Shown piece after piece: positions 3,883 through 63,706 of a DNA stretch of 64,000 nt. How positions within the stretch are numbered: the first letter of the stretch is position 1; each line of letters begins with the position of its first letter. Origin of the DNA: Planctomycetota bacterium (GTDB lineage: Bacteria; Planctomycetota; UBA11346); contig JADGDD010000008.1 of the NCBI GenBank assembly GCA_016745075.1, positions 10,678-74,677 on the forward strand, written 5' to 3'. Position numbers and translations under genes: made by a program. The notes beneath the pieces are model-generated. The model was not told the DNA's origin. It ran no database searches and saw nothing but the letters and a program-made list of their open reading frames with translations.

Positions 3883-4461
3883 ATGTCTAAAAGCATTATA
3901 GGCACCCAAACCGAAAAAAACCTCTTACTTGCTTTTGCTGGTGAATCACAAGCACGCAACCGCTACACCTTCTTTGCCAGTGCTGCAAAGAAAGAAGGCC
4001 TAGTACAAATTGCTGACATTTTTTCCGAAACTGCTGAACAAGAGAAAGAACACGCTAAACGTTTTTTCAAGTTCTTAGAAGGTGGTGATCTACAAATTAC
4101 AGAAACCTTTCCTGCTGGAAAAGTGGGCAGCACTCTTGAAAATCTACGAGCTGCAGCCGCAGGCGAAGAACATGAATGGGAAGAAGTCTATCCAGCATTT
4201 GCTCAAGTTGCTCGTGATGAAGGTTTCCCACAAATTGCTACTGCCTTCGAAGCCATTGCCATAGCAGAAAAACAACACGGCAAACGCTACAAAGACCTTG
4301 CCGATAACCTTGATGCAGGGCAAGTCTTTAAAAGAAATGGACAAGTTGTGTGGCGCTGCCGTAACTGTGGTTACCTCCATGAAGCAGAAGATGCTCCTAA
4401 AGTTTGTCCTGCCTGTTTGCATGCACAAGCTCACTTTGAAATACTAGCCGAAAACTGGTAG
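3883..4461 (+). CDS. rbr: Rubrerythrin (ferritin-like diiron domain plus C-terminal rubredoxin-like CxxC...CxxC)
   Basis: NLLLAFAGESQARNRYTFFA ... EEHEW ... C-terminal RCRNCGYLHE...VCPACLHAQ; start moved to ATG 3883 (MSKSIIGT) inside the longer listed ORF. Confidence 0.9.
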   Translation: MSKSIIGTQTEKNLLLAFAGESQARNRYTFFASAAKKEGLVQIADIFSETAEQEKEHAKRFFKFLEGGDLQITETFPAGKVGSTLENLRAAAAGEEHEWEEVYPAFAQVARDEGFPQIATAFEAIAIAEKQHGKRYKDLADNLDAGQVFKRNGQVVWRCRNCGYLHEAEDAPKVCPACLHAQAHFEILAENW

Positions 4462-4508: not shown

Positions 4509-4551
4509 ATTCTATGAAACAGGCTCACTGTGTAAGCCTGTTTCATAGAAT
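4509..4551. terminator. Bidirectional hairpin between convergent rubrerythrin and glycyl-radical-enzyme genes
   Basis: Perfect 16-bp inverted repeat attctatgaaacaggc / gcctgtttcatagaat with an 11-nt loop, lying between the two stop codons; T-rich flank on the + side. Confidence 0.5.
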
Positions 4552-4558
4552 ATAGATT

Positions 4559-6913
4559 TTAGTTCAAAGTCCGTTCTAACACCTCTCTCTGAACCTTAGG
4601 CGGAAGCTCAACAAAACGTGCGGAAAAACCACCGACTCGTACAATAAGGTTCTGCCATTTCTCTGGTTCTTTCAGTGCAGCCTCAAGGTCTCCTTTGCCA
4701 ACGACGTTAATCATGGCTTGTGGTCCGCCAGAACGAAAATAGACGGCAAGTAGGGCTTCAAATTTTGTACGCGTTTTGGTGACAGTCTCTTTGGAAAATT
4801 TCATATTTTGAGTCGTGCCTGCATGGCAGTCTGTACGCAATGATAACAATGAATTCAAAAAGGCGGTTACGCCGGACTTGTCTGCACCAGGCTGAGGGTT
4901 GTTAGCATTAGCAAGATGATCCCAATCATATCGACCATCAGCAGAAGCCATGGTTTGGCTTCCCAATCCAACATTAGCCTGGTTATTGATCACAACAATT
5001 AAATAGGAAGCAAGCCCAATACGCTGCGCTTGTGCTGCTGTGCTTTCACAACAACGTTCGTGAATACAGGCGGCCATGGCATCTGCCTCTGTATGTTCAT
5101 TTCCATATTTTGGGACCGCTAGCAATTGTTGGCGTATATGTTCATGTCCTTCAAAGTTAACAGCGAGTGCAGACATCAATTCATCTGCACTGATTTTTTT
5201 CTGTTCATACACGAGGTGCTTTATTGCGAGGAGAGAGTCTGCGACGTTTATTTGCCCGTAGGATTCTAGCGTTCCCCCGAGGTGAGCCAAGCCACCATCA
5301 AACATACCTGCACCTGCTTCCAAGCAGTCATCATATAACAAACTCCAAAGTCCATAGGCGCAGTGGTCTGCTACAACTTTATACTCCAATGCCTGTTGAT
5401 CTGCGAGTAACTCTATCCAATAATCCATATTTTGGAAATACATCTTTAACAACTGATCAAAATCAGGGATGTCACGCAGCAAGGCACAAGCCGGCATGTA
5501 GGTTTTTCTCCCTGTATAGGGCTCGGTATTATTATGGAGCATGCATTCTAATATTTTGCTATGATTAAAAACACCAGACGGTGTGCCAAAGCTCTTTTTA
5601 TACAATACATATTCACCACAGCCATAGGGCACATACTGTTCTGCCCATTCTTCTGATACCTGAAATGCTTTTTGTACCGATGGTATATTAACATCATCGT
5701 TGTATAACATCGGGAAGGTGTGTCCTTCCGCGATACTATCCAAGGCATGACTATATAATTCTGGATCTTGGCCAGTATAAAAACGCAGAGACAATTGTGG
5801 AGCTGGCAAGCAAACACGTCTTGTTGCTTCTATGGCCACATGGGCAAAACGATTTGCTGCCTGCTCGTTACGTCGCCCTTTACCACCAATGATAATACGG
5901 TTATCGTAGGGCGCTCCATTATAGTTTATTATGTCCCAAAGGTTTGCACAAAGGTCTAGCGCTTCGGCTTCTGTTAATCGACCAGCTTCCAAATCAGCAA
6001 CAAGAAAATCCCCTAAATATTCATCCATTCGCCCCCATGAATACGTAGCAGAATACACACCATAGAGTAAGGTTAATTGCATCGCCTCATGTAAGGTTTG
6101 AGGAGCATTTTTTGTAATAGCAAGCAAAGCTGTGCGCATCTGCATGCATCCCAAGCGCTGCTGTTCGTCTATACACGTATGTGCGATTAAGCCCGCGTGC
6201 TCTGCTAATGCCACGGCGCAGGTTTTTATTCCATCGAGAGAAATAAGTAGGCCATCATACATGGCCACAGGCTCATTGGCCGCTTCAGCTCGCATTTTTC
6301 TGTGTTGCACATCTGCATATAAACCGGGTAATCCTTTTTTCATTAATTTATCATAGTCAAAGTGTGGGCCGGTATTGCGCACCAAAGGGTGGCCTACACT
6401 TGCTGCCTCCTTGAGAGACAAATTATTAATGGCAGGCATTTCTCGTTTCATTTCTGGAGTCAATGCCGCTTCAAATCGTGCACAGGTCGTTTCTGTTTCC
6501 CAAAAGTCTACAATACCTTGCAATTCTGTTCGTACCGCATCATCTGGCTGGAGGTCTTCTATTTTTTTGTCCAAAATATTTTTATGACAATAATATCCTG
6601 CACCAGGACCAGAGCCAGGACACAATGGTAGAAAACCCAATGCTGGAATGTGATGCTTGGCCGCATTCCATTTATACAATACCGCATCTACGCCCGGCGT
6701 TGCAATGCAGCGACCTGCTAACAAATCATTCGGTTTCACAGGAGATAAAGTTGCTGGATACTGTGCTGCTAGACAACGGGCTTCTCGAATCGCTTTATCT
6801 TCATCAATGTTCGCTTTATAGACAGCGGTGAACTGGCGTTCTACTTGGAATGCATCTTCACAAAATGGATGTACAGCATGCGTAGATACCGTGTATAATG
6901 GTGCGTTTGTCAT
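4559..6913 (-). CDS. Glycyl radical enzyme (pyruvate formate-lyase / PFL2 superfamily), substrate unknown
   Basis: 784 aa; C-terminal glycyl radical motif IVRVGGFSARFVELPPKVQREVLERT; mid-protein GCGE loop consistent with the thiyl-radical Cys/Glu site; RBS GAAGGA before ATG at 6913. Confidence 0.85.
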   Translation of the reverse strand: MTNAPLYTVSTHAVHPFCEDAFQVERQFTAVYKANIDEDKAIREARCLAAQYPATLSPVKPNDLLAGRCIATPGVDAVLYKWNAAKHHIPALGFLPLCPGSGPGAGYYCHKNILDKKIEDLQPDDAVRTELQGIVDFWETETTCARFEAALTPEMKREMPAINNLSLKEAASVGHPLVRNTGPHFDYDKLMKKGLPGLYADVQHRKMRAEAANEPVAMYDGLLISLDGIKTCAVALAEHAGLIAHTCIDEQQRLGCMQMRTALLAITKNAPQTLHEAMQLTLLYGVYSATYSWGRMDEYLGDFLVADLEAGRLTEAEALDLCANLWDIINYNGAPYDNRIIIGGKGRRNEQAANRFAHVAIEATRRVCLPAPQLSLRFYTGQDPELYSHALDSIAEGHTFPMLYNDDVNIPSVQKAFQVSEEWAEQYVPYGCGEYVLYKKSFGTPSGVFNHSKILECMLHNNTEPYTGRKTYMPACALLRDIPDFDQLLKMYFQNMDYWIELLADQQALEYKVVADHCAYGLWSLLYDDCLEAGAGMFDGGLAHLGGTLESYGQINVADSLLAIKHLVYEQKKISADELMSALAVNFEGHEHIRQQLLAVPKYGNEHTEADAMAACIHERCCESTAAQAQRIGLASYLIVVINNQANVGLGSQTMASADGRYDWDHLANANNPQPGADKSGVTAFLNSLLSLRTDCHAGTTQNMKFSKETVTKTRTKFEALLAVYFRSGGPQAMINVVGKGDLEAALKEPEKWQNLIVRVGGFSARFVELPPKVQREVLERTLN

Positions 6914-6916: not shown

Positions 6917-7894
6917 TTATTTCCTTCTGTTTAATTTTATATAACGCCCACCAAGTAGCCATTCACTGATATACAGATTTCCATCTGCATCTGCGGTTAT
7001 GCCATGAGGGCTGTTTAGTATCCCTACTGGTAAATCAGGTGGTTGTAATTCATTCTTTTCATTAAGAGCATTGGGCCAGCCCGGACGTGATACACATTCT
7101 TTTCCATCTGCCAGAGTTGCTACTACCGCATTCTCTGCATCCAAAACGACTAACTGCGCACATAAATCGACTATAATCACATATGTTTCGACTTGAGCAA
7201 ATGCACTTGGGCTCCGAAATTCTTTATGGGTTATTACTGAGTGAAAACAACCCGTACTATCAAATATTTGGACGCGACCATTTCCTCTATCTGCCACATA
7301 GATCAAGGTCTGTTCTACTCTACGCGTATCAATCCAGACGCTATGCGGACAGGCAAAGAGACCTGCTCCTTCGCTACCATTTATACTGCACACATGCTGA
7401 CCGCTCGCACTGAGACAATGGACAACGCCATACCCATAGCCATCTGCTATCCATATGTGTCCAGTTTCTGTATCTACGGCTACGCCGGTTGGTTTAAATT
7501 GTGTGTCATCTGCACTGTACCCACAGTGTTCTGGACCAAAACGTTGGACCACCGCTCCCGTACCCGTACAGACAAGCACTTGACCAATACCATGTTTGGT
7601 TTCATCACCATCTTTATGACCAATATCCGCTACTAAAATGTAATTTTCATTTTCACTCCGCATACAGCATAAGGCGTGCGTTTCTACCACAGGTGCTGCA
7701 ATTTCAGCAACACGTAGAAGCTTTCCTGCGGGACTATAAAAAGACAAGACGGGATCATTAACATCACCAACGACAATCTCACCATCTGCGGTACAAGCCA
7801 TACCATGATGTGAAAAATATTCTGGTTTAGAGGGACGCTGACCCCAATTTTCTTGCCATTCAAAGTTCAGTGGTCCAGCTTGCAATTGAGTCAT
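6917..7894 (-). CDS. NHL-repeat six-bladed beta-propeller protein
   Basis: Repeated blade motifs such as YVADRGNGRVQIFD, HIWIADGYGYGVV, NLYISEWL; start ATG overlaps the upstream PhyH stop (ATGA). Confidence 0.6.
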   Translation of the reverse strand: MTQLQAGPLNFEWQENWGQRPSKPEYFSHHGMACTADGEIVVGDVNDPVLSFYSPAGKLLRVAEIAAPVVETHALCCMRSENENYILVADIGHKDGDETKHGIGQVLVCTGTGAVVQRFGPEHCGYSADDTQFKPTGVAVDTETGHIWIADGYGYGVVHCLSASGQHVCSINGSEGAGLFACPHSVWIDTRRVEQTLIYVADRGNGRVQIFDSTGCFHSVITHKEFRSPSAFAQVETYVIIVDLCAQLVVLDAENAVVATLADGKECVSRPGWPNALNEKNELQPPDLPVGILNSPHGITADADGNLYISEWLLGGRYIKLNRRK

Positions 7895-8697
7895 TGTTCA
7901 TGCCCTACTGCTTGCCCAATAAGCTTCTCTCGCCATGAATTGTTTATCTCATATGGCTGCGCATAGGTATTGCCCGCCTGATCTTCTCCACGTGCAAGGT
8001 AAATGCGAAAGTCGGGATCATTTTCGTGTTGCGTAAAATGACAATCCGCAGAAAAATATCTGAGCGTTAATCCACAACGACGAATCATACTCGTATTGGG
8101 ATTACTGCCATGAATAATTCGGCCATCATGAATAGAACAATGGTTCGGATCTAATTCAAAAGCAACAGCACTATCTTTATCAAAACTACCAGCATCAATT
8201 TCTTCAGCAAAAACCGCATCATCCTTTACAAGGTGATAATTATGATCTGCAAGCAGGTGACTACCTGGGATAACCTGCAAGCACCCATTTTCTTTGAGAG
8301 ACGGGTCTAAAGCCAGCCACACCGTACAGACCGAATCCATACGGTCCAGCATACCAGCCCAATACGCACTATCTTCATGCCATGGAATACGCCGACCCGT
8401 ACCTGCTGGTTTGGTGATGAAATGGGTAGTAAATAGAACAATATTTGGGCCAATCAATTGCTCTACCATATCTAAAACCGTATCATGCAATGCCCACCTG
8501 AATAATTCAGGGAAAAGAAAATGTGGTTTATCCATTTCTTCTGGACGGCCATTATAGATCTCTTTCCATTCTGTAGCGATAGATTCATGATAGCACTGTA
8601 AATCAGTAAAATCTTGCTCAGATAATAATGGTGCTGTTGGTACTATATAACCTTGTTTTTTATAGGCAGCACACTCAGCGGCAGATAAAATTGCCAT
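7891..8697 (-). CDS. Phytanoyl-CoA dioxygenase (PhyH) family Fe(II)/2-oxoglutarate-dependent oxygenase
   Basis: PWHEDSAYW (HxD iron ligands) and a downstream His in IIHGSNPN; ATG at 8697 preceded by AAGGAG (the listed ORF begins at an in-frame TTG at 8700). Confidence 0.75.
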   Translation of the reverse strand: MAILSAAECAAYKKQGYIVPTAPLLSEQDFTDLQCYHESIATEWKEIYNGRPEEMDKPHFLFPELFRWALHDTVLDMVEQLIGPNIVLFTTHFITKPAGTGRRIPWHEDSAYWAGMLDRMDSVCTVWLALDPSLKENGCLQVIPGSHLLADHNYHLVKDDAVFAEEIDAGSFDKDSAVAFELDPNHCSIHDGRIIHGSNPNTSMIRRCGLTLRYFSADCHFTQHENDPDFRIYLARGEDQAGNTYAQPYEINNSWREKLIGQAVGHEQ

Positions 8698-8826
8698 CAA
8701 ATCTCCTTTTCTTCTCTCATCATTATATGAGCCGATAAAAGGGAAATCCTGTCATATTGTGATGAAAAACGACCCTCTTGTGATGTTTGCTTGCCATTTT
8801 AACCTTCCGCACTATCTTTTCGTGAT

Positions 8827-9666
8827 ATGTCCATGCAATTATTTTGGGATGACATCTGCGAACACAGCCCTGGGAATATGCTCCGCTGTGCTCAAGGTTA
8901 TTACACACCTGGATACCGTTTTCAGCAGCACTATCATGACTTTGCTGAATTCTTTCTCATCACAGAGGGTGAAGGTTATCATTACTGCGATGGCCATCGA
9001 TCTCCCTTACGAGCATCTTCCTGCTGCTTTATTCACCCAGATTGTGAACATTCTCTGACCGCTTCTGAAGAGAGCAGCATGTCCATCATCAACGTGGCCA
9101 TAGCTCCTCAATTATGGACCCATATTCACGATCTCTATTTTGATACTGCACAAGACTGGTTTTGGAGCCGCTCCAAAGGTTGTTCTGTTCATCACGTTCC
9201 CGAACAGGCTCGGCGGTCATTTATGGATGCAGTCACTGAATTAGAACAAGACCACTCAAGTCGCCTAGCAGAAGATGCGCTCCTTTTGCATTTTATCAAT
9301 ACGTTCACCACGACCACCACACAAACAAATAGCAATAAAGCACCACAATGGCTACAAGAACTACTGCTGACCATGAACGAACCAAAATATTTCCAAGACA
9401 GCATGGAGGCTATGGTGCGCTTAAGCGAAAAAAGCAGAGAACATATTAATCGAAGTATTCGTACATACTATCAACAAACGGCCACTGAATATATGAATGG
9501 ATTACGCATGCGCTATTCCTGCCGTCGCTTGCTTGAAAGCACTGATAGCATCATGAAGATTGCTCTTGATTGCGGATTTGAATCTCAAGCCCATTTTTTT
9601 CGCCTCTTTAAAAAGACACACCACTGCACGCCACGACAATTTAGAATGACTCGTAAAGTTCTCTAA
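8827..9666 (+). CDS. AraC family transcriptional regulator (cupin-like N-domain plus C-terminal AraC HTH)
   Basis: C-terminal SCRRLLESTDSIMKIALDCGFESQAHFFRLFKKTHHCTPRQFR is a typical AraC-type HTH pair; divergent from the PhyH-NHL-GRE operon. Confidence 0.8.
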   Translation: MSMQLFWDDICEHSPGNMLRCAQGYYTPGYRFQQHYHDFAEFFLITEGEGYHYCDGHRSPLRASSCCFIHPDCEHSLTASEESSMSIINVAIAPQLWTHIHDLYFDTAQDWFWSRSKGCSVHHVPEQARRSFMDAVTELEQDHSSRLAEDALLLHFINTFTTTTTQTNSNKAPQWLQELLLTMNEPKYFQDSMEAMVRLSEKSREHINRSIRTYYQQTATEYMNGLRMRYSCRRLLESTDSIMKIALDCGFESQAHFFRLFKKTHHCTPRQFRMTRKVL

Positions 9667-9721: not shown

Positions 9722-12700
9722 ATGCGTATTCTTACTCTCCTCTTTTTTCTCTGCGGATTATGCTCAGCTTCCGATTGGCCGATGCTCCTGCATGACATTC
9801 AACGAAGTGGCATCAGTGAAGAACAGCCAACATTTCCGTTACACCATAACTGGAGCTATCAACCACTACAGGCTCCAGTACCAGCATGGGACAAACCAGC
9901 TTTACAAGATTATTTTAATGGATTTTCTTCCATACACCACGCACAAGCTTTTAACCGCGCCTACCACAGTATCTGCGCAAATAATAAAGTTTTCTTTGCA
10001 TCGTCTGCTAATGATAGCGTTGTCTGCCTTGATGCTGCCAGTGGCAAAACATTGTGGGTAGCACTCACCAGTGGGCCTATTCGTCTACCACCAACCTTCC
10101 ATAAAGGCTCACTGTACTGTGGTTCTGATGATGGTTTTGTCTACTGCTTTGATGCTAACACTGGAGCACTCTTATGGCGTTCCTGTCCAAGTGCGACCAT
10201 TCTGGCGCAACGCCCCGCTTATTTGCCAGGCAATAAGCGCATTATTTCTCGCATGCCCGTGCGCACTGGTTTTATTATTGATACAGAACAACAAACGATT
10301 TATGGCCAATGTGGTTTATTCCCAGAAGAGAAGGTTATTGCCTTTCAACTTGATCTCAACACCGGAGCAGTTGTGAGCTCCACTCAGGCCAACGCCGCGG
10401 AAGGATCAGTAACACGTATTGGTGATGAAATCTATGCCTCACGTGGACGGAAAAGTTTTATGATTTCTGATAGAACAGGTAAAGAGGTTTTTAAAAGTAA
10501 TAAAACAAAAGGAGCAGGTGTTACCTCTGGCTACGGCACTCTTGCTCTTACTGGCGGTAATGAGCGGAAAGAGCTTATGCTCTTTGATACAGAGAATAAA
10601 AAAATACTTGCTATGTGTACAGGCCTACGCGGTTTATTACTGAAAGACACACTGTATCTCATAGATGGAGCAACCATACAATCTTACAAAATCGCTGATC
10701 TCATACGTTTCCATAAAGAATATAATGACGCTCTCAACGGACCAATTAAACTCACGTGGTCTGATAAAAGCGAGTTGAAAGCGCAACGCAATCTCCAAAT
10801 AGAAAATGCTGTTCTCTGGAAACAACCCTGCACTTCCACCACTGCACTTATTGCCTGCGGATCGACCATCATTACCGGAGCTCCACAGCACATCACGGCG
10901 TTCGACAGCAATACGGGAGCCGTACTCTGGGAGCAACAGGTAGACGGAACCCCCTATTCTCTCGCTTTTTCTCATGGACGTTTATTCGCAAGCATGGACA
11001 ACGGCCATACACTGTGCTTTTCAGCTCAGGATCAAGATCATATTCTTCAAACAGAACAACACGATATAACCGCATTTTCTCCTGTAGATTCCATACAGCA
11101 GTATACCACGAATATCATCAAAGAATCTCCACAGAGCAAAGGATATTGTGTTATTGTCAACCCGAGCACTTGTGAAATAGCTTATGATATTGCCACCCGT
11201 TCTGATATGCATGTACTTTGTCTCATCGATGATGAAGAAGCCTGCTTAACAGCTCAACAACAATTATTGCCGACCGGCTTATATGGCACTCGCATTCACT
11301 ACCTACGCGGATCACTGTCTACTGTTCATATTCAAGATTACATCGCCACGGTTATTGTTAGTGAACAAGCCCTCAGTGATGAGATAGAATCAGAAGCACT
11401 TCGTATTGTTCGCCCAGAAGGTGGAGTCATCTTATGCTTTAATACAAGCACTCCTGCAAACGATAATTGGACCCAACACTCGGATAAAAATATATCATAC
11501 AGCCGTTACCAACGAGGCACACTTGCTGACACAGGAAACTGGAGTCATGCCTATGGTGGACCAGAGGCCACCAGTTGCAGTAATGATGATACCGTTCATG
11601 GACAATTTGAACTGCAATGGTTTGGTGCGCCTGGCCCTGAAAAAATGAATGACCGCCATCACCGCCCAATGCCACCATTGTATGCTCAAGGAAAAATGTT
11701 TGTACTTGGAAATGAGTACCTTTACGGCGTTGATGCATACAATGGAACCATACTTTGGGAACGCCCCGTCCCTGGTTCACGCCGACTTGGTATTATGTAC
11801 GATACAGCCCCAATGATAGCGCATGATCACAGTCTTTTCCTTTCAATCGGAACATCTTGCATTCAGATAGATGCCAACACTGGGGCCACACAACAAGAAT
11901 TTACGCCGCCGCAGACGAATTCCTCCTGGGGGTTTGTTGACCGTTATCAACAACTCCTACTTGGCAGCAGCCAACACAGCAATGCCAGTCTGACAAAAGT
12001 TGGAAAAATCAATAAACTCATGGAGGCAGATAATAGACTTGTTGCCGTAAGCACTCATCTATTTGCCCTTGATCTCAAACATGCAACAAAGAAATGGGAT
12101 CATAATTCAGGGCTTATCGTTAATTCAACTATTGTTCGCAGCGCAAATACGCTCTGCTTTTTAGAATCACGAAATCCAGAGCTGATAACAACAGATGCTG
12201 GTAGATTTGAACTCAATCAACTTGCAGAAAATGCTTCTCTGTATTTTGTAGCTCTGGATATAGAAAACGGACAGGTGCTCTGGGAAAAACAGACCAATCT
12301 TCCTTACAATAATGTGTTCTTTCTGCAAATCGCCAATGATACCCTGCTCGCCAGCGGCTCATATAACCAAGACAAACGTCGTCACTATGGCATGAGTGCT
12401 CTTTCACTGACTGATGGCAGCACGCGTTGGTCTTCCAATTTTGATGAAGGGAAAAAAGGTGGATCACATGGCGAACAATGGCAACACCCTGCTATTGTTG
12501 GCGAAAACATTTATCTGATGCATCACATTATCAGCCTCACAACTGGTACACGTAGCCAAGAGGGTGAAGGTGGCAGGAAATGGCGCAAAGGACATGGCTG
12601 CGGTACTATTTCCATGTCTAACAATGCCATATTTTACCGTGGCCAATGTATTACTGACCTACAAACGTGGAACCAAGAACGCATCTTCCGCGGCAATAAA

Positions 12701-12826
12701 CCAGGCTGCTGGATCAACCTTATTCCCGCAGGTGGCCTCTTGCTGATGCCGGAAGCCAGTGCTGGTTGCTCTTGCTCTGTACAAGTGCAAACGTCTATGG
12801 CATTGCGACCAGTGGGTCACAAATAA
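9722..12826 (+). CDS. Secreted PQQ-like beta-propeller repeat protein (BamB/PQQ-repeat family), ~1034 aa, multi-domain
   Basis: N-terminal signal peptide MRILTLLFFLCGLCSA; recurring propeller motifs (DG.VYCFDANTGALLW, ITAFDSNTGAVLWE, LYGVDAYNGTILWE); central degenerate Rossmann-like segment; paralog of 27528-30551. Confidence 0.65.
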   Translation: MRILTLLFFLCGLCSASDWPMLLHDIQRSGISEEQPTFPLHHNWSYQPLQAPVPAWDKPALQDYFNGFSSIHHAQAFNRAYHSICANNKVFFASSANDSVVCLDAASGKTLWVALTSGPIRLPPTFHKGSLYCGSDDGFVYCFDANTGALLWRSCPSATILAQRPAYLPGNKRIISRMPVRTGFIIDTEQQTIYGQCGLFPEEKVIAFQLDLNTGAVVSSTQANAAEGSVTRIGDEIYASRGRKSFMISDRTGKEVFKSNKTKGAGVTSGYGTLALTGGNERKELMLFDTENKKILAMCTGLRGLLLKDTLYLIDGATIQSYKIADLIRFHKEYNDALNGPIKLTWSDKSELKAQRNLQIENAVLWKQPCTSTTALIACGSTIITGAPQHITAFDSNTGAVLWEQQVDGTPYSLAFSHGRLFASMDNGHTLCFSAQDQDHILQTEQHDITAFSPVDSIQQYTTNIIKESPQSKGYCVIVNPSTCEIAYDIATRSDMHVLCLIDDEEACLTAQQQLLPTGLYGTRIHYLRGSLSTVHIQDYIATVIVSEQALSDEIESEALRIVRPEGGVILCFNTSTPANDNWTQHSDKNISYSRYQRGTLADTGNWSHAYGGPEATSCSNDDTVHGQFELQWFGAPGPEKMNDRHHRPMPPLYAQGKMFVLGNEYLYGVDAYNGTILWERPVPGSRRLGIMYDTAPMIAHDHSLFLSIGTSCIQIDANTGATQQEFTPPQTNSSWGFVDRYQQLLLGSSQHSNASLTKVGKINKLMEADNRLVAVSTHLFALDLKHATKKWDHNSGLIVNSTIVRSANTLCFLESRNPELITTDAGRFELNQLAENASLYFVALDIENGQVLWEKQTNLPYNNVFFLQIANDTLLASGSYNQDKRRHYGMSALSLTDGSTRWSSNFDEGKKGGSHGEQWQHPAIVGENIYLMHHIISLTTGTRSQEGEGGRKWRKGHGCGTISMSNNAIFYRGQCITDLQTWNQERIFRGNKPGCWINLIPAGGLLLMPEASAGCSCSVQVQTSMALRPVGHK

Positions 12827-14887: not shown

Positions 14888-15766
14888 TTACAGAGACGAC
14901 ACTTGCAATTGTTGGCGATAGGACTTTGGCGTTTGCCCCACTTCTTTTTTGAAGATCCGAGAAAAATAATTACTGTCATTGAAACCACTCGCAAAAGCGA
15001 TCTTGGTAATACTGTCATTCGTTGTGGTTAATAATGCTTTTGCATGATTAAGACGTAAGCGATTCAGGTACATAATGGGGGTCACACCATAGTCTGATTT
15101 GAAACGACGAATAAATTGATTAACAGATAAATGAGCTGCATCTGCTAACTCCGCCAAAGAAATATCTCTGCTGTATTCGCTTTCAAGGAGGGCAACGCTT
15201 TCTGCTAAAGCCATTAACGGGTTTGCCTCTGAATTTTCTTCTGAAAAGATACTACAAAGTTCAACAATTAACCGTTGCATCGCAGCAACTTTCCTTGCCT
15301 GAGGTGCTTGCGTGTGCCGAATAGGTTCAGTGAGATCGACACAGAGCGGCTTGATCATTTTCAATTGTTGAGCACTTAGTCTTAAACGATTATAATTACG
15401 TTCCTGTTCTCGATACACTGGCTCCAAAATAAAAAGCGCATGATAACCAGACAATGCAGTAAGATCATAGGTGTGTGCTTGTAACCACGTTGGTAAAAAC
15501 ATGCAGTTAATGATTTCCATATCCCGTGAATGGGCAAAGCCATGTACTTGCCCTGGCGCTATTGCAAAAACATCTCCGGCAGCAATCGGCACTAGGCCCC
15601 ACTCCGTTTGATGTTGGCCACTACCACGACAAACGATAACCAATTCGCTAAAATCATGGCGGTGAATGGGGTAATCATCACGCGGAAAACGCCAAAAGGA
15701 AGCTTGCACCGGAGCTGCTGGATGAAGCCCCTGTTTCTCTAAAGCAATAGTCGGAATCTGATGCAT
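14888..15766 (-). CDS. AraC family transcriptional regulator (cupin plus HTH)
   Basis: C-terminal LSVNQFIRRFKSDYGVTPIMYLNRLRLNHAKALL...ITKIAFASGFNDSNYFSRIFKKEVGQTP; divergent from the PhyH/URO-D-like operon. Confidence 0.85.
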   Translation of the reverse strand: MHQIPTIALEKQGLHPAAPVQASFWRFPRDDYPIHRHDFSELVIVCRGSGQHQTEWGLVPIAAGDVFAIAPGQVHGFAHSRDMEIINCMFLPTWLQAHTYDLTALSGYHALFILEPVYREQERNYNRLRLSAQQLKMIKPLCVDLTEPIRHTQAPQARKVAAMQRLIVELCSIFSEENSEANPLMALAESVALLESEYSRDISLAELADAAHLSVNQFIRRFKSDYGVTPIMYLNRLRLNHAKALLTTTNDSITKIAFASGFNDSNYFSRIFKKEVGQTPKSYRQQLQVSSL

Positions 15767-15864: not shown

Positions 15865-16620
15865 ATGCCAGCACTCACGAAAGCTCAGATAACGGATTAC
15901 CATGAACATGGTTTTGTTATGCTGGGAAAAATTATGGATGATGCAACCTTAGATGTCATTCGCTCAGAAGAGCAGAGGCTCATGGCAACCGTTGGTTCTG
16001 CCCATGATGAAGATCTTGCTAACCGCAGTGTCTTCATTTCTTTATGCCACCATCATAGTGCTGCGTTTCGTAACGTTGCCACGCAAGGGCCACACCTTGA
16101 TGCGGTAGAACAAATTGTTGGCGAAGACTTCTTACTATGGTACACGCAGTTTGTTATAAAACATCCAGACACGGGGGATGCTAAGAGTGAGTTTCCGTGG
16201 CATCAAGATAATGGCTATGGCGCAATTACTCCCGATAATAACGTAACAGTTTGGATTGCTCTTGATGACGTGACCGAAGAAAACGGATGCGTATGGGTTG
16301 TGCCCGGCAGTCATAAACAGGGGCTACTTGACCATCAGAAAAAAAATGACTCATGGCATTTACATTTAGACGTCGAGACCGATGGTATTCCTGCCATTAT
16401 GAAAGCAGGCGAAGCGGTGATGTTTAGTGGATTAACCCTGCACCGTTCAAAATTAAATCACACGAATGCTCCACGCCGCGCTATGTTTATGGAATACGCA
16501 CATGCCAGTAGTCACTTAATTGAAGATCAGCAAGCACTTATCCATAAATCTCACACATGGATGGTACGTGGACAATTGCCCCTAGACATTCCCAATCAAG
16601 CACCGGAGACACAATCATGA
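15865..16620 (+). CDS. Phytanoyl-CoA dioxygenase (PhyH) family Fe(II)/2OG oxygenase
   Basis: FPWHQDNGYG (HxD), VVPGSHKQG, GLTLHRS; RBS AAGGAA upstream of ATG 15865. Confidence 0.75.
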   Translation: MPALTKAQITDYHEHGFVMLGKIMDDATLDVIRSEEQRLMATVGSAHDEDLANRSVFISLCHHHSAAFRNVATQGPHLDAVEQIVGEDFLLWYTQFVIKHPDTGDAKSEFPWHQDNGYGAITPDNNVTVWIALDDVTEENGCVWVVPGSHKQGLLDHQKKNDSWHLHLDVETDGIPAIMKAGEAVMFSGLTLHRSKLNHTNAPRRAMFMEYAHASSHLIEDQQALIHKSHTWMVRGQLPLDIPNQAPETQS

Positions 16621-17678
16621 CATGCACTCAAACACCCGTTGAGGAGATGCAAAAACGTATTCTCCATGCTTACGACCATCCAGATGAGCAAGCCTGTTTT
16701 TATAGTGGTAATGTAGAACGCACCGGTAGTACCCGCTTAGATCATCTACCCTATTGGGACTGGAGTTGCCAACCTGCCCGCTCTGTCCCAAGCAATACGA
16801 CTTGCCTTTTTCCACTCGCACTGAATTGCCCACAAATACACACCACCGAAGGGAAACTATGGGTCAATCCAATTTTTGAAGACGAGGACGAAGAAGATTT
16901 TATTCTGGAACTGCCAGATATACGTAGCGGTTTTGGCGACACCATTTTACAAGAAATGGCGACAATGGCTCGTGATTTACCCGCGGGTGAAACCATACGT
17001 GAAGTTGATATTCAATCCTCACTGGGCATTGCTGAACTCGTCTGTGGGCAAAATTTGTATATAGCCTTACTAGAAGAACCTGAAGCCATCAAAAAAATGC
17101 TCACACGCATTACTGATTTCGTTATTGATTTTGTTCACGAAATGCGCCGTGTTTGTGGACCACGTTTAAACGGTGCAGGCTTTCCTTTTATTTGGTCAGA
17201 CCAACACAGCACGCTTGTCAGTGATGATACACTGACCTTAGTTTCTCCACAGCAACATCTGGAATTTAGTCTCCCGTACGTGAATCAATTTGCTGATGCC
17301 TGCGGCCCCATTCATTACCATTCTTGCTCATGGTATGAACGCTTTTTTGATAATATTAAACAAGTCCGTAATGTCCGCACCTATAATTGGAATACCGGTA
17401 ACAGCGACGATCCACATCATATTATTCGAGAGTTTTCTGGACGAGCTGTACTCGCGCCACACATCTGTAAAGATATGCATCTCAGCAACGATGTTGCTCG
17501 TTGGGGCCATTCTTTCTCCGACGAAGTAGATCTACTCAGCTATGTGTTAGATGGCATGCTCGATAATACCAGCTTTCATTTCTGGCTTGGTGAATTTGAT
17601 GAGAAGCCAGATGTACTTGAACGGATGTATGATATTTTGCATGAACGAGGGTACTCACCACAAGCACAACTCGGCTAA
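16617..17678 (+). CDS. Uroporphyrinogen decarboxylase (URO-D)-like family protein, function unknown
   Basis: Fold-level similarity to URO-D/MtaA-like proteins and to the paralog at 46534-47562; ATG 16617 overlaps the PhyH stop (ATGA) with GGAG 8 nt upstream, so the listed start at 16557 is rejected. Confidence 0.55.
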   Translation: MTCTQTPVEEMQKRILHAYDHPDEQACFYSGNVERTGSTRLDHLPYWDWSCQPARSVPSNTTCLFPLALNCPQIHTTEGKLWVNPIFEDEDEEDFILELPDIRSGFGDTILQEMATMARDLPAGETIREVDIQSSLGIAELVCGQNLYIALLEEPEAIKKMLTRITDFVIDFVHEMRRVCGPRLNGAGFPFIWSDQHSTLVSDDTLTLVSPQQHLEFSLPYVNQFADACGPIHYHSCSWYERFFDNIKQVRNVRTYNWNTGNSDDPHHIIREFSGRAVLAPHICKDMHLSNDVARWGHSFSDEVDLLSYVLDGMLDNTSFHFWLGEFDEKPDVLERMYDILHERGYSPQAQLG

Positions 17679-17721: not shown

Positions 17722-18546
17722 ATGGATATATCTGTCATTTTTACGACCTACAATCAGCCACGCTGGCTGGAGCTCGTGCTCTGGGGTTTTTCTATCCAGA
17801 GCCACAGTGATTTTGAGATTGTCATTGCTGATGATGGCTCCAAGCCAGAAACCGCTGCCCTCATTGCAGATATTCAGAAAAAAACAGCACTCACCATCCA
17901 ACATATTTGGCATGAAGACAATGGCTTTCAGAAATGTAGTATTCTGAACAAAGCCATTGTTGCGGCCAAACATGATTACTTGGTTTTTACTGATGGCGAT
18001 TGTATTCCTCATCCTGATTTTTTAAAAACACATAACAAACATGCTCAAAAAAATGCATTCCTCTCTGGCGGCTACTTCAAATTGCCGCAAGACATAAGTG
18101 AGGCTATTACCATTGATGAAGTACTCCAAGGCTTACCCTGTTCCCCTGCGTGGCTGCGCAGCAACGGCATGTCTTGGACCCCAAAAATGTTAAAGCTACA
18201 GGCCAAAGGGGCCTCATCATCTCTACTAGATATGCTGACAACCACCCGCCCAACGTGGAATGGCCATAATGCTTCCACATGGAAAGAATACGCGCTAGCG
18301 ATAAATGGTTTTGACGAGCGTATGCAATATGGCGGCCAAGATCGAGAATTTGGTGAGCGCCTTGAAAACATTGGCGTACGCGGCAAACAAATTCGACACA
18401 AAGCATGTTGTGTACATCTACACCATAAACGTGGTTATGCGACACCTGAGAGTATTGCCAAAAATAAAGCGATACGCGCAGACACGGTTTCGCAAAAAAT
18501 AACGAAAACGGAACATGGCATCGAACAGATGCTCACCGCTCCATAA
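17722..18546 (+). CDS. Glycosyltransferase family 2
   Basis: N-terminal ISVIFTTYNQPRWLE...FEIVIADDGS...VFTDGDCIP (GT2 DxD-type motifs). Confidence 0.75.
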   Translation: MDISVIFTTYNQPRWLELVLWGFSIQSHSDFEIVIADDGSKPETAALIADIQKKTALTIQHIWHEDNGFQKCSILNKAIVAAKHDYLVFTDGDCIPHPDFLKTHNKHAQKNAFLSGGYFKLPQDISEAITIDEVLQGLPCSPAWLRSNGMSWTPKMLKLQAKGASSSLLDMLTTTRPTWNGHNASTWKEYALAINGFDERMQYGGQDREFGERLENIGVRGKQIRHKACCVHLHHKRGYATPESIAKNKAIRADTVSQKITKTEHGIEQMLTAP

Positions 18547-18552
18547 ACAATA

Positions 18553-19599
18553 TTAGAGGTAGAGGCTCTCCCACTGCTCAATAACCTGTGCAGCAGATAC
18601 GGCTTCTAAGGTATTTGCTGCTGCCCACGCCTCTGGTCCTGGCGCACAGGCTTCAATACTTGTTTGCGCAGCAATCAGCACAGGGCTTGTTTCTGCACGT
18701 GGGCAGAATAAACGCGGATCTGTCTGGCCAAATAAAACCAACAGAGGACAGCCAACCGCAGCCGCAATATGGGCAGGGCCTGTATCAACACTCACACAAC
18801 AATCAGCCATTTCCATTACAGCCAACAGGCGGCGAATCGGCAACTGATCAGCAACGGAAATGACCTGCGGCAACTGCACCTGCGCCGCCAAAGATTCTGT
18901 ATACTCTTGTTCTGGTGGCGCACCACAAAGTAGCACAACGGCATCTGGGTTACTTAAGACCATATGACGCATCACCTGTACCCAGCGCTCATCTGGCCAA
19001 AACTTGACATTGCTAGACCGGTCTCGGGCACCCGCTCTCATGGTTTTTTTATTACCTGGCTGAATTAAAATAATAGGTCGGTCTTGCCAGCCATTCTTCT
19101 CCAACCAAGCACGACACTCTCTGCGTTCTTCTTCACTCACAACTAATTGGGTGCCAGTGACCGAACACGGAGGCCAAGCTGTCTTAACCGTCTCTTTAAG
19201 AGCCAAACGTTGCCAATGCTCTATAGTATGTTCATCCTGATGGCGCTCATCGACCAAAGAATCTACCGCATCTTGTTTGAGGTCATAGCCAGCCCGTTCT
19301 AACAAACGGTAGACTTTGGGCATTTCTTCCAACACCCACACGGGACTGTTCCCACGTTCTTTGAGAGATGTGACCAACTGTTTCTGTTCACTACTCAAAA
19401 GATATGGCGTTTTTCGAGAACCAATCACATAGACATCTCGAACCCACGGGCAATTGGCATAGAGTACCTTGGTCCACGCCCCAGAGCCAACCACATCACA
19501 TGGCTCCCCGCTACGCTCTGCGAGCATACGCAAAAGCGGCGTTAACATCACCATGTCTCCAAGCGCACCAAAGCGCACTACTAGGGGGTTGTTCGGCAT
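18553..19599 (-). CDS. Glycosyltransferase family 9 (LPS heptosyltransferase-like)
   Basis: N-terminal RFGALGDMVMLTPLLRML and overall GT9 organisation. Confidence 0.75.
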   Translation of the reverse strand: MPNNPLVVRFGALGDMVMLTPLLRMLAERSGEPCDVVGSGAWTKVLYANCPWVRDVYVIGSRKTPYLLSSEQKQLVTSLKERGNSPVWVLEEMPKVYRLLERAGYDLKQDAVDSLVDERHQDEHTIEHWQRLALKETVKTAWPPCSVTGTQLVVSEEERRECRAWLEKNGWQDRPIILIQPGNKKTMRAGARDRSSNVKFWPDERWVQVMRHMVLSNPDAVVLLCGAPPEQEYTESLAAQVQLPQVISVADQLPIRRLLAVMEMADCCVSVDTGPAHIAAAVGCPLLVLFGQTDPRLFCPRAETSPVLIAAQTSIEACAPGPEAWAAANTLEAVSAAQVIEQWESLYL

Positions 19600-19799
19600 T
19601 CTTTCGGCCTCCGCTTTTGTCTGGGCGCACTCTAGCGGCTCCTCCAGCTTTTCCAGTGCAAGTCAGAGCGCAGCCTTGCCTTATGAGTAGTCAGCTCATG
19701 ATGAGCAGCCATTCAAAACCATGATTTTTACTGGTGTTGAGCCATACCTGCCCAGCATTCAGACTATAAACGATTCCCACGAACAGCAAAGAATACCCT

Positions 19800-20939
19800 A
19801 TGACTCGAGACATTGCACCAGATAAAAAGCTCCTCTTCAAAGTCCATATGCCAAAATCGGTAGATGGCCCCTTGCTAGAAACTTTACATAGCGGCTTTAT
19901 TGGCCAAGGCACCAAAGTTGACGAATTTGAAGAAAAACTTCGTGCTTACTTCAACCATGAACATGTAGTTACCGTGAACTCTGGTACTTCTGCTCTCCAA
20001 TTGGCACTTCGTCTCGCCAATGTTGGTCCTGGCGATGAAGTCATCTCAACTCCTATGACTTGTACGGCCACCAATATGCCCGTTCTCGCTATGGGGGCAA
20101 AACTGGTCTGGGCAGACAGCAATCCTGTAACCGGCTTGATTGATGCGGAATCTATTCGTTCTAAAATTACAGAAAAAACAAAAGCCATTATTATGGTACA
20201 TTTTGGCGGATTGCCTTGTGATATTGATGGCATTAATGCCCTCGCACAAGAACATCAGATCAAAACAATTGAAGATGGTGCACACGCCTTTGGCGTTTCC
20301 TACAAAGGTAAAAAAGTAGGCTGCCATTCTGATTTTGTTATGTTCTCTTTACAAGCAATTAAACATATCACCACCATAGATGGCGGACTCTTATTCTGCA
20401 AGAATGCAGAAGATTACAAACGTGCTGTACTCTTACGTTGGTACGGCATTGATAGAAATGCCAAACGCAAAGAATTCCGTTGCGAAGAAAATATTGCTGA
20501 ATTTGGTTATAAATTTCATATGAATGATATTTGTGCAGTCATTGGCATAGAGCAATTAAAATATGTTGATGATTTACTGCAACGCCACCGTGATAATCAA
20601 CTCTTTTATGATGAGCGCCTCAAAGCGATTCCTGGCATTCAACTCATACCCAAACCATCAGACATCGTCTCATGCCCGTGGTTATATGTCTTACATGTCA
20701 CCGATGGCAGACGTAATGATTTTATGGCATGGATGGATACACAAAACGTTATGGCCTCCCGCGTACATGAACGCAACGATATCCACGATGCCTTCGCTGA
20801 AAGCAACTGTCAACTGCCTGGTGTTGATACATTTAATGCCAGCCAAGTTTCTATTCCGGTTGGCTGGTGGATTACCGACGACGACCGTGCCTATATTGCG
20901 GATAAAATAGAAGAGTTCTCGCAAACTTTCGTCCAATAA
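19800..20939 (+). CDS. DegT/DnrJ/EryC1/StrS family PLP-dependent sugar aminotransferase
   Basis: GDEVISTPMTCTATNMP...KTKAIIMVHFGGLPCDIDGI...IEDGAHAFG...FSLQAIKHITTIDGG with the PLP lysine present. Confidence 0.85.
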   Translation: MTRDIAPDKKLLFKVHMPKSVDGPLLETLHSGFIGQGTKVDEFEEKLRAYFNHEHVVTVNSGTSALQLALRLANVGPGDEVISTPMTCTATNMPVLAMGAKLVWADSNPVTGLIDAESIRSKITEKTKAIIMVHFGGLPCDIDGINALAQEHQIKTIEDGAHAFGVSYKGKKVGCHSDFVMFSLQAIKHITTIDGGLLFCKNAEDYKRAVLLRWYGIDRNAKRKEFRCEENIAEFGYKFHMNDICAVIGIEQLKYVDDLLQRHRDNQLFYDERLKAIPGIQLIPKPSDIVSCPWLYVLHVTDGRRNDFMAWMDTQNVMASRVHERNDIHDAFAESNCQLPGVDTFNASQVSIPVGWWITDDDRAYIADKIEEFSQTFVQ

Positions 20940-20968
20940 GTTCTCTCTAGCCACACAAGGTTCCCGCC

Positions 20969-21778
20969 ATGTCCATGCAACATATTATTATTACTCGTTT
21001 CAATATTCCGATGGTGGAACACACCGAAGATAAAAACGGTCAGAAAACACAGACTGATGCATGGATGGAAGAACGTTTTGCCCTGTTTGAAAAATTCTGC
21101 ATGCCGTCTATCATGGCACAGACCAACCAGAACTTTCAATGGGTGGTATTATTTGGCGCACATACCAGCCAACAATGGCGAGACCACATTACAGCAATAG
21201 AAGAACGCTATGATCGATTTACACCACTCTTTATGGATCACCCCAATATTGCTGAACCAATTAATGAGCTCGTTACTGATACCACCAAAAAAGTGCTCAC
21301 AACTCGTTTAGATAACGATGATGCGCTTCATAAAGAATATGTTGAAGTTATTCAGAAAAATGCTGAGTCCAAACAAGACAATTGTTTTCTGCTGTTCCGT
21401 TTTGGCTATTCCTTTAATGGAGAAATGGCAGTTGTTCGTTCACACAAATACAACCCCTTTAGTACTTTTATTGAATGCATTAACGATGAGAGAGCACCCA
21501 TTCAAACGGCTTATTGCAGCAGACATGGCCGCACCCATGAGGTAGCGCCTCTGCATTACATTAAAGAACGCCCTTTTTGGCTGGTTGGCATTCACGATAG
21601 AAACGCGGTTAATTTACACGTTGGGGAGACCAGAGATTATTCACTAAGCAAACCCAAAGATGTGCTCAAACTTATTCGTAATAGATATCTTCGCCCACTG
21701 CGTAGGTATTTTTGGCCAAAAGCTTACAGACAAACCTATACCTTAGCAGACATTCAAAAAGAATTTGGTGTGAAATAA
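20969..21778 (+). CDS. Putative glycosyltransferase (rhamnosyltransferase-like family)
   Basis: N-terminal HIIITRFNIP... resembles the putative rhamnosyltransferase family; placement inside a glycosylation cluster; weak assignment. Confidence 0.45.
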   Translation: MSMQHIIITRFNIPMVEHTEDKNGQKTQTDAWMEERFALFEKFCMPSIMAQTNQNFQWVVLFGAHTSQQWRDHITAIEERYDRFTPLFMDHPNIAEPINELVTDTTKKVLTTRLDNDDALHKEYVEVIQKNAESKQDNCFLLFRFGYSFNGEMAVVRSHKYNPFSTFIECINDERAPIQTAYCSRHGRTHEVAPLHYIKERPFWLVGIHDRNAVNLHVGETRDYSLSKPKDVLKLIRNRYLRPLRRYFWPKAYRQTYTLADIQKEFGVK

Positions 21779-21800
21779 AAGAACTGACTCAGACGTTCAT

Positions 21801-22709
21801 TTACCCACGTCTATTCTTTCGCCACAATCGCGCTACATGGCGACGGTCTGAGGGAATGCGTTGTAAAGCTGGAAGGCGACGGTAATTGACTCCGCCATCT
21901 GCGAGCACCACTTCTAAACCAAGCTCCCAAGCAATACGCAACGTTTCGTAAGACCAATCTCCTCCGCGACCAAAAGGCGCTGCAAAGACAGGGATATATC
22001 CGGGCAAATCTTGCAGAGCTGTTTGATCATCACGTAAAGCCTGCTGTTGCCACTGTGCAGATTTATGGATAAAACGTTCATGGTCACGACCATGCAACCC
22101 AACATGAAATACATGACTATCTAATTGGCTCAATGCTTCGTAAGAAAGAAAGCGGCTCGTGCCAAGCGACACTCCTGCCACCAACGCTTCTATTTTCTGG
22201 GTGCCATCACGATAAAACTCCGCATCGTCACAATGACGCAGATCTCGTGAAAGCTGCTCATATTCTGGAGTCCACAATTTCTGTAACGTTGAATCTGGAT
22301 GCTGCCGTAAAGCTTGTGCTATCGTAATCCAAACGGCATAAGGCTGGTTAAAAACACCACTATTCACAAATAATGTTGCCGGTATCTGCTGTTGCTGTAG
22401 CCACGGCAAAGCTTGTTCCGCTATGCTGTTATCTCCATCATCAAAGGTCAATACAGCATAATTACGGTCTAATGGCCCAGTACGCAATCGTTCTATCGCC
22501 TCTATCAAAGAAATAATAGGCATACGGCTGTGAAGAAAGCGCACACTGGCAGTAAATGTTTTTTGAGAAGTCCATGTCTCACGCGTATGTCGCTGTGGAC
22601 AAAAAGATTCACTGACTTGATGATAATTATAGACAGCTACATGAGGCCTGCCGTGTAAAGCCCGAGTAATGGCACCGGGGATTTTTTGTATTTCTCTAGC
22701 AATACTCAT
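21801..22709 (-). CDS. Polysaccharide deacetylase (NodB-like) family protein
   Basis: YAVLTFDDGDNSIAEQALPWLQQQQIPATLFVNSG; ATG overlaps the upstream GT4 stop (ATGA). Confidence 0.7.
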   Translation of the reverse strand: MSIAREIQKIPGAITRALHGRPHVAVYNYHQVSESFCPQRHTRETWTSQKTFTASVRFLHSRMPIISLIEAIERLRTGPLDRNYAVLTFDDGDNSIAEQALPWLQQQQIPATLFVNSGVFNQPYAVWITIAQALRQHPDSTLQKLWTPEYEQLSRDLRHCDDAEFYRDGTQKIEALVAGVSLGTSRFLSYEALSQLDSHVFHVGLHGRDHERFIHKSAQWQQQALRDDQTALQDLPGYIPVFAAPFGRGGDWSYETLRIAWELGLEVVLADGGVNYRRLPALQRIPSDRRHVARLWRKNRRG

Positions 22710-23872: not shown

Positions 23873-24080
23873 ACGTTCATGGAATACTTGCAGCTCTACC
23901 CATTGGCGCAACGCCCTGTTTTTGCAACCCTCTCCCACACCATCCAAAAACAACCGAACAGAAGGAGTCAAAACTCAAGCAAAACCAAAAGACAAACGAA
24001 CAGGCGGAGAGAAGGGGCCAAAGGCCCCGACCGACCGCCGAGATACGTTTTTGCTGATACAATGGGCAAAGCCCATCAGC

Positions 24081-24171: not shown

Positions 24172-24247
<76 letters not shown>

Positions 24248-24308
24248 ATATCTATTTTCAATTTAGCGTTTTAAGAACACTTGTAACCGCTTCTCAATAA
24301 CACTGTAG

Positions 24309-24384
24309 TGGTGGCCTCGGGCAGATTCGAACTGCCGACACAAGGATTTTCAGTCCTCCGCTCTACCAACTGAGCTACAAGGCC
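24309..24384 (-). tRNA. tRNA-Phe (anticodon GAA), CCA encoded
   Basis: 76-nt cloverleaf folded by hand: acceptor GGCCTTG/CGAGGCC, anticodon loop CT-GAA-AA, T-loop TTCGAAT, 3' ACCA. Confidence 0.95.
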
Positions 24385-47562: not shown

Positions 47563-47722
47563 CTTCAGAGCTCCTATCAGGAAAGATATTTCTATAAGGC
47601 GAGCGGCTTTGCTCATCATACATTTTACCTGCACTCCCTTTATGATCAACAAAAAGTACAAGAGATGATCGTTTCTGATCAAAAGCATTGACCCCAAGCA
47701 TTTTATCAGCAAGGATAGTACA

Positions 47723-63703: not shown

Positions 63704-63706
63704 CTT

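Follow-up and report, generated by a model that had tools for sequence, protein, structure and literature searches.

The reactions of glycyl radical enzymes (GREs) are known for only a few dozen out of thousands of GRE sequence types (PMC13450708), and those enzymes that carry a glutamate two residues after the catalytic cysteine (the "CXE-type" GREs) encompass, as defined in sections 5.6–5.7 of the same review, 1,2-eliminases, such as glycerol dehydratase (GD), propanediol dehydratase (PD), HypD, CutC and IslA, and the ring-opening isomerases YbiW and PflD. A dedicated radical-SAM activase encoded nearby is expected of the superfamily, and the specificity of such activases tracks the sequence of the Gly loop of the GRE being activated, PflA, for example, also activating TdcE, which has the Gly loop of PflB (PMC13450708, section 2.5). 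Escherichia coli TdcE and GrcA, both PflA-activated in trans (which is documented for TdcE, PMC13450708), are described GREs that lack an adjacent activase of their own, as does the one considered here: a 784 aa GRE encoded at positions 4559–6913 (minus strand) of a 64-kb stretch of the Planctomycetota bacterium contig JADGDD010000008.1 (hereafter, "the window", meaning the whole stretch). The initial annotation of the window had pointed out that no activase lies within reach of this gene, and this observation not only stood, but could also be extended to ~83 kb of sequence by motif, tblastn, profile and gene-calling searches. The gene is the last one of an operon that also encodes a PhyH-family oxygenase and an NHL-repeat protein and has an AraC-family regulator divergent from it; we consider it likely that this AraC-controlled operon encodes a functional CXE-type GRE, which is activated by an activase encoded elsewhere in the genome.

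The assignment of 4559–6913 to the GRE superfamily is sound, and its radical machinery is wholly canonical. Pfam searches matched residues 26–648 to the PFL-like catalytic domain (PF02901, 329 bits) and residues 669–768 to Gly_radical (PF01228, 69 bits), whereas the translation contains a Cys loop PYGCGEY (5609–5629, minus strand), whose C432-G433-E434 constitutes the CXE motif, and a Gly loop VRVGGFSAR (4616–4642, minus strand), which places the RVxG[FWY] signature of the C-terminal glycine radical domain at residues 759–763 (RVGGF) and makes G762 the predicted radical glycine, as had been proposed initially. In a phmmer alignment, the GCGE of this protein pairs with the GCVE (catalytic C433/E435) of B12-independent GD (1r8w), C432 being the equivalent of GD C433 and invariant in the subfamily. 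Across an alignment of 30 subfamily members, PYGCGEY is invariant, as are V758–G762, R766 and F767 of the VRVGGFSARF loop and about 110 other positions. When the same 30-sequence alignment was used as the input, AlphaFold returned a model of good quality (pLDDT 87.9, pTM 0.89), which, together with the Pfam matches, indicates the ten-stranded barrel of the PFL-like catalytic domain and superposes full-length on every solved CXE-type GRE with template modelling (TM) scores of 0.79–0.83 (0.82 for 1r8w) at 22–24% sequence identity. Pfam, motifs and the model thus agree on a GRE, and misassignment of the family, which had been named initially as something that could overturn the observation, is not the case.

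The known 1,2-eliminases (GD 1r8w, PD 5i2g, HypD, HpzG 8iof, CutC, IslA/IseG) share the full-length fold, an RVxG[FY] loop and a length of ~780–800 aa with the window GRE, which, however, is only 22–24% identical to, and roughly equidistant from, all of them. Isomerases YbiW and PflD, which open the ring of anhydro-sugar phosphates, are similar in having the CXE motif, a sugar-related context and comparable folds (TM 0.81 for 8id7 and 0.79 for 8yjo), but are just 22–23% identical, and no phosphotransferase or aldolase context was seen at the window locus. Unlike the window GRE, the E. coli YbiW and PflD presumably have activases of their own, YbiY and PflC.

None of the characterised GRE families claims this protein. 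Its best NCBIfam model, TIGR01774 (PFL2/glycerol dehydratase), reaches 296 bits where 678 are required, and the models of characterised equivalogs (HypD, CutC, HpsG, HpfG, HPAD, PflB) score 67–246 bits against cutoffs of 994–1150 (e.g., 208 versus 1100 for HypD and 206 versus 1050 for CutC), sulfopropanediol dehydratases and indoleacetate decarboxylase also being among the equivalogs that fall far under their cutoffs; the best sequence matches in the PDB, all at ~200 bits, are HpzG (8iof), GD, CutC and HplG. The relatives found in protein databases carry no annotation beyond "pyruvate formate lyase family protein"; two of them, at 59% and 58% identity, are the closest, and hundreds more are 41–55% identical. 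A scan of GTDB species genomes keyed on two subfamily motifs, the Cys loop PYGCGEY and the VRVGGFSARF loop, yielded at least 545 confirmed subfamily loci, the hosts of which, among the matches listed, include Ignavibacteria, Melioribacteraceae (Melioribacter roseus, Rosettibacter primus), Verrucomicrobiota, Opitutales and Bacteroidales, as well as Clostridia (Ruminiclostridium cellobioparum, Clostridium lacusfryxellense), Neobacillus, Chloroflexi and Acidobacteriota; a scan of metagenome contigs with the single protein as the query yielded only four loci, none of them close. The motifs HPLYRxTGP and PYGCGEY are family-specific and invariant. The nearest relatives of the window GRE reside in Verrucomicrobiota, Opitutales and Puniceicoccaceae metagenome-assembled genomes (MAGs), which, like Planctomycetota, belong to the Planctomycetota–Verrucomicrobiota–Chlamydiota (PVC) superphylum. 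No paper describing this subfamily was found in the literature, and the 2026 GRE review (PMC13450708) contains no enzyme matching it. The subfamily is large, divergent and without a characterised member, and of the two options offered initially, activation in trans or an "unusual" GRE, the latter holds solely in this sense and fails as far as the radical machinery is concerned, whereas the former is the best-supported reading, for the reasons given below.

The CxxxCxxC signature of radical-SAM proteins is absent from every stop-to-stop open reading frame (ORF) of at least 80 aa in the window, being confined to ORFs of 74 aa or shorter, and tblastn searches of the window with the activases flanking the GREs of the two closest relatives returned nothing (best E = 0.02). 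The window and the scaffold extensions flanking it were also translated in all six frames, and a hidden Markov model (HMM) of 68 subfamily activases was run with filters off against the resulting ORFs of 30 aa or more (positive control, 364 bits); it matched only the ferredoxin 2x[4Fe-4S] domains of NuoI and of a protein resembling pyruvate:ferredoxin oxidoreductase (PFOR). As the window is a part of a 181-kb scaffold (scaffold_15 of the ENA assembly ERZ28566616), gene calls with Pfam annotation could be extended beyond it, and no Radical_SAM gene was seen in the 9 kb past its left or the 10 kb past its right edge, which brings the inspected and activase-free part of the scaffold to ~83 kb.

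It could be objected that an activase does reside in the GRE operon or on the same scaffold and escaped detection because the assembly is broken, the gene was miscalled or its cluster motif is non-canonical, given that the ~83 kb inspected are less than the whole 181 kb and that the window offers just 4.5 kb downstream of the GRE. This is, nevertheless, highly improbable: both scaffold extensions are devoid of radical-SAM genes, the six-frame HMM search depends neither on gene calling nor on CxxxCxxC, and an independent Logan assembly of the run SRR11072027 shows an identical gene order around the GRE and the same junction, by which an assembly artefact is ruled out. Furthermore, a 20-bp inverted repeat (arms at 4509–4528 and 4532–4551, 95% complementary in a repeat search) lies right after the GRE stop, where it forms a bidirectional terminator-like hairpin between convergent stops (RNA fold of 4509–4551 at −29.7 kcal/mol; z = −9.2 versus shuffles), and only 97 bp separate the GRE stop from that of a convergent rubrerythrin gene (3883–4461, plus strand; NCBIfam RuberyRbr, 296 bits versus a cutoff of 200). 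The GRE is therefore the last gene of the operon, and the 97-bp spacer with its hairpin leaves no room for an activase or an activase remnant. The hairpin and the flanking gene calls exclude an activase immediately outside the window in the same operon, the finding that was initially stated as one that would have contradicted the observation, and a missed activase in the GRE operon is largely refuted; one elsewhere on the scaffold (positions 1–97,408) would simply amount to encoding in trans. The flanks are also as had been described, with the convergent rubrerythrin on one side and the NHL and PhyH genes upstream in the same operon. Rubrerythrin itself was considered as a functional partner of the GRE and rejected, as it adjoins the GRE in none of the other subfamily loci compared.

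How exceptional this arrangement is can be judged from a census of 85 non-redundant subfamily loci (the window included, up to 10 kb of flank per side; individual loci are given L numbers below). An activase homologue is found in 72 of the 85 loci (70 at E < 1e-20 and two cut by a contig end), and 56 of the 70 start no more than 600 bp downstream of the GRE, the remainder being situated further downstream (four) or upstream (ten), so the initial expectation of a dedicated and usually adjacent activase is true for the subfamily. Its activase-linked members, such as those of the Verrucomicrobiota-type MAGs (L008, L002), Melioribacter roseus (L022) and Rosettibacter primus (L034), are 41–59% identical to the window GRE and have the same motifs and the same divergent AraC, but also a PflA-like activase of 260–310 aa, usually directly downstream, which the window is without; conversely, PhyH and NHL genes are inserted between AraC and the GRE in the window. 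The fetched flanks of 13 loci, the window among them, contain no activase, and for 10 of these 13, the sequence reaches 3 kb or more to either side. Such activase-less loci belong to at least five phyla (e.g., Opitutales, Bacteroidales, Verrucomicrobiota and Clostridium lacusfryxellense) and account for five of the 11 closest ones (48% or higher identity to the window GRE): the window itself, Opitutales L013, Bacteroidales L014, Verrucomicrobiota L015 and P0019/L097. One Verrucomicrobiota MAG even has two GRE paralogues (L015 and L066), both without an activase.

GCGE and RVGGF are kept in every activase-less copy, and the match at 171 conserved columns (median 0.956 versus 0.974 for activase-linked copies) does not differ significantly (Mann–Whitney p = 0.13). 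The Gly loop RVGGFSARF, near-invariant in the subfamily, is the same in most activase-less copies, two of which have RVGGFCARF instead. It would appear, judging by these sequences, that the activase-less state is a recurrent and apparently stable minority, unlike a one-off loss followed by decay. Because copies of this kind recur (13 of 85 loci, several phyla), keep their motifs and are not significantly less conserved, activation in trans is the best-supported explanation for the window GRE as well, and its missing neighbour, a situation already known from TdcE and GrcA, is unremarkable by itself.

The opposite view would be that the window GRE is a decaying relic, whose activase was lost in a rearrangement of the 3′ end of the locus, and which can no longer be activated. 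The two closest relatives (58–59% identity) indeed have an activase gene that overlaps the stop codon of the GRE, where the window has the hairpin and a convergent gene, and two tandem IS110-family transposase genes (348 aa each; L091 4507–5553 and 6497–7543) are located ~3–6 kb left of the window, as signs of local rearrangement. Moreover, of the 118 columns without variation among the other 29 members of the alignment, the window GRE matches 113 and has substitutions at five, namely R148E, D162I, G462N, G472Y and G477A (nucleotides about 6470, 6428, 5528, 5498 and 5483, respectively). A relic is still unlikely: the reading frame is unbroken over 784 aa with every catalytic motif intact, the gene remains tightly coupled to those upstream of it (a 3-bp gap and a 4-bp overlap, see below), the activase-less copies of at least five phyla have not lost their motifs either, and the conservation score of the window GRE (0.942–0.945), while low, is inside the subfamily range (0.924–1.000) and within that of activase-linked members, e.g., 0.947 for L008. 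As to the substitutions per se, R148E and D162I might have changed together as a lost salt bridge, and the three glycine replacements are grouped in one loop (residues 462–477). An IS200-like Y1 transposase gene is also present inside the window (48961–49539). In the locus of the closest relative, an 18-aa stretch 83% identical to residues 92–109 of its own activase (L008 8924–8977 and L009 1624–1677) sits ~1 kb upstream of the GRE (start at L008 10001), near the AraC genes of that locus, and has the appearance of a leftover from an activase that was duplicated or relocated.

If the window GRE is activated in trans, the activase would most likely come from a paralogous locus belonging to this subfamily, because RVGGFSARF is near-invariant among its members and activase specificity follows the Gly loop, which distinguishes these proteins from PFL (RVSGYAV) and GD (RVAGYSA). 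The parallel with TdcE is limited in this respect, as TdcE has its RVSGYAV loop in common with PflB, the lender of its activase, whereas the loop of the window GRE is RVGGFSA. Several points weigh against a functional, trans-activated CXE-type enzyme. No trans activase was identified in the ~83 kb of the scaffold inspected, ~98 kb (positions 1–97,408) lying outside of these, and among the matches at least 56% identical to the L008 activase (7948 of 8000 candidates scoring), none could be traced to the sample that the window stems from. The five substitutions mentioned above put the window GRE, as far as its sequence goes, at the divergent end of the subfamily range. Finally, the general acid of GD, His164, pairs with P183 here (in a phmmer pairwise alignment of limited accuracy at ~25% identity), and the adjacent H184 is not conserved in the subfamily, so that diol-dehydratase chemistry cannot simply be transferred to this enzyme. 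An activase (P0139) and a GRE paralogue (P0019) that were considered as the host's own genes were both rejected, since they come from other samples; P0019 merely adds one activase-less locus to the subfamily set.

What the enzyme might do can be outlined from its conserved motifs and the established chemistry of GREs (PMC13450708, sections 2.5, 5.6 and 5.7). A radical-SAM activase encoded elsewhere would abstract a hydrogen from G762, and the resulting glycyl radical would generate a thiyl radical on C432, which, in turn, would abstract a hydrogen from the hydroxyl-bearing (carbinol) carbon of the substrate. With E434 deprotonating the substrate hydroxyl, the ketyl radical could then expel or open an adjacent C–O (or C–N, C–S) bond, that is, either an elimination or a ring-opening isomerisation would take place. 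By analogy with the described CXE-type enzymes, the GRE is best read as an eliminase or isomerase whose substrate derives from a carbohydrate. R179 and G182, invariant in the subfamily, are inside the conserved HPLYRxTGP, and an anionic substrate is possible.

The genomic surroundings of the subfamily also bear on the substrate. When the genes within 7 kb of the GRE were clustered for 84 subfamily loci, the most frequent neighbours were the activase (68 loci), AraC (45), PhyH (19), GFO/MocA oxidoreductase (17) and an ABC sugar-binding protein (13), followed by SMP-30/gluconolactonase-type propellers (12), glycoside hydrolase (GH) family 92 and LacI (10 each), aldo-keto reductase (9), FGGY kinase, URO-D-like proteins and zinc-dependent alcohol dehydrogenase (6 each) and NHL propellers (5), with GH106, GH10 and PfkB in fewer loci. 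In the two closest relatives, the GRE lies among GH78 and GH106 rhamnosidases, a sulfatase and a PQQ-like propeller, and in an Opitutales locus it is near GH127, URO-D and aldo-keto reductase genes. Because of this glycan-utilisation context, the substrate of the GRE is probably a small sugar derivative or another small carbohydrate-derived compound. Within the window, a URO-D-family protein of 434 aa is encoded at 46534–47838 (minus strand), and URO-D-like genes adjoin the GRE in six related loci (L008, L013, L085, etc.), a recurrence that hints at a shared pathway, possibly one of methyl-group handling. The window also encodes two PQQ_2/BamB-like beta-propeller proteins of ~1000 aa (9722–12826, plus strand, and 27528–30551, minus strand), and a homologue 28% identical to the former is found near the GRE in the locus of the closest relative (L002 2312–5539).

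The operon itself opens with the PhyH-family Fe(II)/2-oxoglutarate oxygenase gene (7891–8700, minus strand, gene-caller start at 8697; Pfam PhyH PF05721, 97 bits), which overlaps the gene of the NHL-repeat beta-propeller protein (6917–7894, minus strand; Pfam NHL/TEN_NHL) by 4 bp, and the GRE start codon follows the NHL stop by 3 bp with a purine-rich stretch immediately upstream; the translation of the GRE is thereby coupled to that of an intact PhyH oxygenase and of an NHL propeller. By blastp, the divergent AraC-family regulator (8827–9666, plus strand; Pfam AraC_binding and HTH_18) clusters with the AraC proteins whose genes lie upstream of, and divergent from, the GRE at 45 of the 84 subfamily loci. 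Rfam searches near the operon revealed no riboswitch or other RNA element, the sole matches being two tRNAs at ~24.2 kb.

With regard to the oxygenase, the pattern WHxDS...H.S..N...R (WHEDS, IHGSNPN and R207/208 in the window protein, which therefore has the HxD...H facial triad and the 2-oxoglutarate-binding arginine) is kept by 90% or more of 20 PhyH sequences linked to GREs, which indicates, at the level of sequence, that these proteins are likely active Fe(II)/2-oxoglutarate oxygenases. The closest solved relatives of the window PhyH are 6zyk, EvdO2, EvdO1, human PhyH and SnoK, of which EvdO2, EvdO1 and SnoK are sugar-modifying. PhyH proteins 43–47% identical to it are encoded directly upstream of the GRE in Verrucomicrobiota L029, L066 and L071 and in Cyclobacteriaceae L065, one of the same identity class is on the opposite strand in Neobacillus L069, and Ignavibacteria loci have less similar PhyH proteins of the same cluster. 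A second divergent AraC (14888–15766, minus strand)/PhyH (15865–16620, plus strand; 125 bits) module is situated 7 kb from the GRE operon and is followed by a 373-aa ORF without a Pfam match (16557–17678), the GRE region thus holding two AraC-controlled PhyH oxygenases. As for the NHL protein, its PDB matches are NHL domains (a generic similarity) and include the PAL lyase core (3fvz, E = 2e-9), and four Ignavibacteria loci encode homologues ~29% identical to it, 2–6 kb upstream of their GREs.

An O2-dependent oxygenase apparently co-transcribed with a putatively O2-labile GRE would make an odd pairing, and one way of accounting for it is that the three proteins provide two alternative routes, an oxic and an anoxic one, for a single cleavage of the same substrate: hydroxylation by the 2-oxoglutarate oxygenase and subsequent cleavage by a propeller lyase (as in PHM and PAL) when oxygen is available, and radical 1,2-elimination by the GRE when it is not. 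A PhyH with an intact HxD...H...R stands beside the GRE in 19 of the 84 loci (Verrucomicrobiota, Ignavibacteria, Bacteroidota, Bacillota), six-bladed propellers recur (SGL in 12 loci and NHL in five), the repeat similarity of the NHL protein reaches the PAL lyase core, the solved structures closest to the PhyH include the sugar-modifying EvdO2 and SnoK, and the sample, a marine bone-degrading biofilm (PMC7883544), would suit an organism living at an oxic–anoxic boundary with a steep oxygen gradient. Against this, the argument is a purely contextual one, 65 of the 84 subfamily loci have no PhyH, and the single-sequence AlphaFold model of the NHL protein failed (pLDDT 36, unusable). A dual pathway marked by the PhyH/propeller and GRE pairing, for the removal of a methyl ether or some other substituent from a carbohydrate-derived substrate, for example, is thus a rather doubtful proposition, and the same doubt applies to its wider form, in which the GRE would catalyse a not yet described reaction (1,2-elimination or ring opening) and PVC genomes would share one activase among dispersed paralogues.

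The sample in question, SAMN14087006, is D2 of the marine bone-degrading microbiome study, which reported one tentative Planctomycetota MAG and mentioned anaerobic saccharolytic Kiritimatiellales (PMC7883544). For the housekeeping protein GuaA, all named relatives (68–72% identity) come from Planctomycetota MAGs. Apart from rubrerythrin, the window encodes a PFOR-like protein of 1523 aa (49943–54514, minus strand) with POR_N, PFOR_II, POR and several 4Fe-4S domains, malate dehydrogenase, and an 11-subunit nuo-type complex I operon (~54700–64000, plus strand, continuing into L090), which together suggest a host that is probably anaerobic-capable or facultative, and in which a GRE could work. 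The PFOR-like protein is ~350 aa longer than typical single-chain PFORs; the nuo operon includes a fused NuoB/C-like subunit of 411 aa (Oxidored_q6 and Complex1_30kDa), and no NuoE, NuoF or NuoG was seen in the stretch covering it. A cell-envelope glycan cluster (17722–23971) comprises genes for a family 2 glycosyltransferase (GT2), a GT9 heptosyltransferase, a DegT aminotransferase, a putative rhamnosyltransferase, a polysaccharide deacetylase and a GT4 enzyme, and is followed by tRNA-Ala and tRNA-Phe (24172–24384) and a Fur-family regulator.

The reach of a single activase over several GREs is poorly understood (PMC13450708), and the activase-less copies of this subfamily constitute a natural test set for how many GREs one activase serves. 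The main lead, however, is the reaction that the subfamily catalyses, along with its recurrent association with PhyH oxygenases: as these GREs are widespread (at least 545 loci in Ignavibacteria, PVC, Bacteroidota, Bacillota and Chloroflexi) and are found in glycan-utilisation loci, establishing the identity of their substrate would add a new step to anaerobic polysaccharide degradation.

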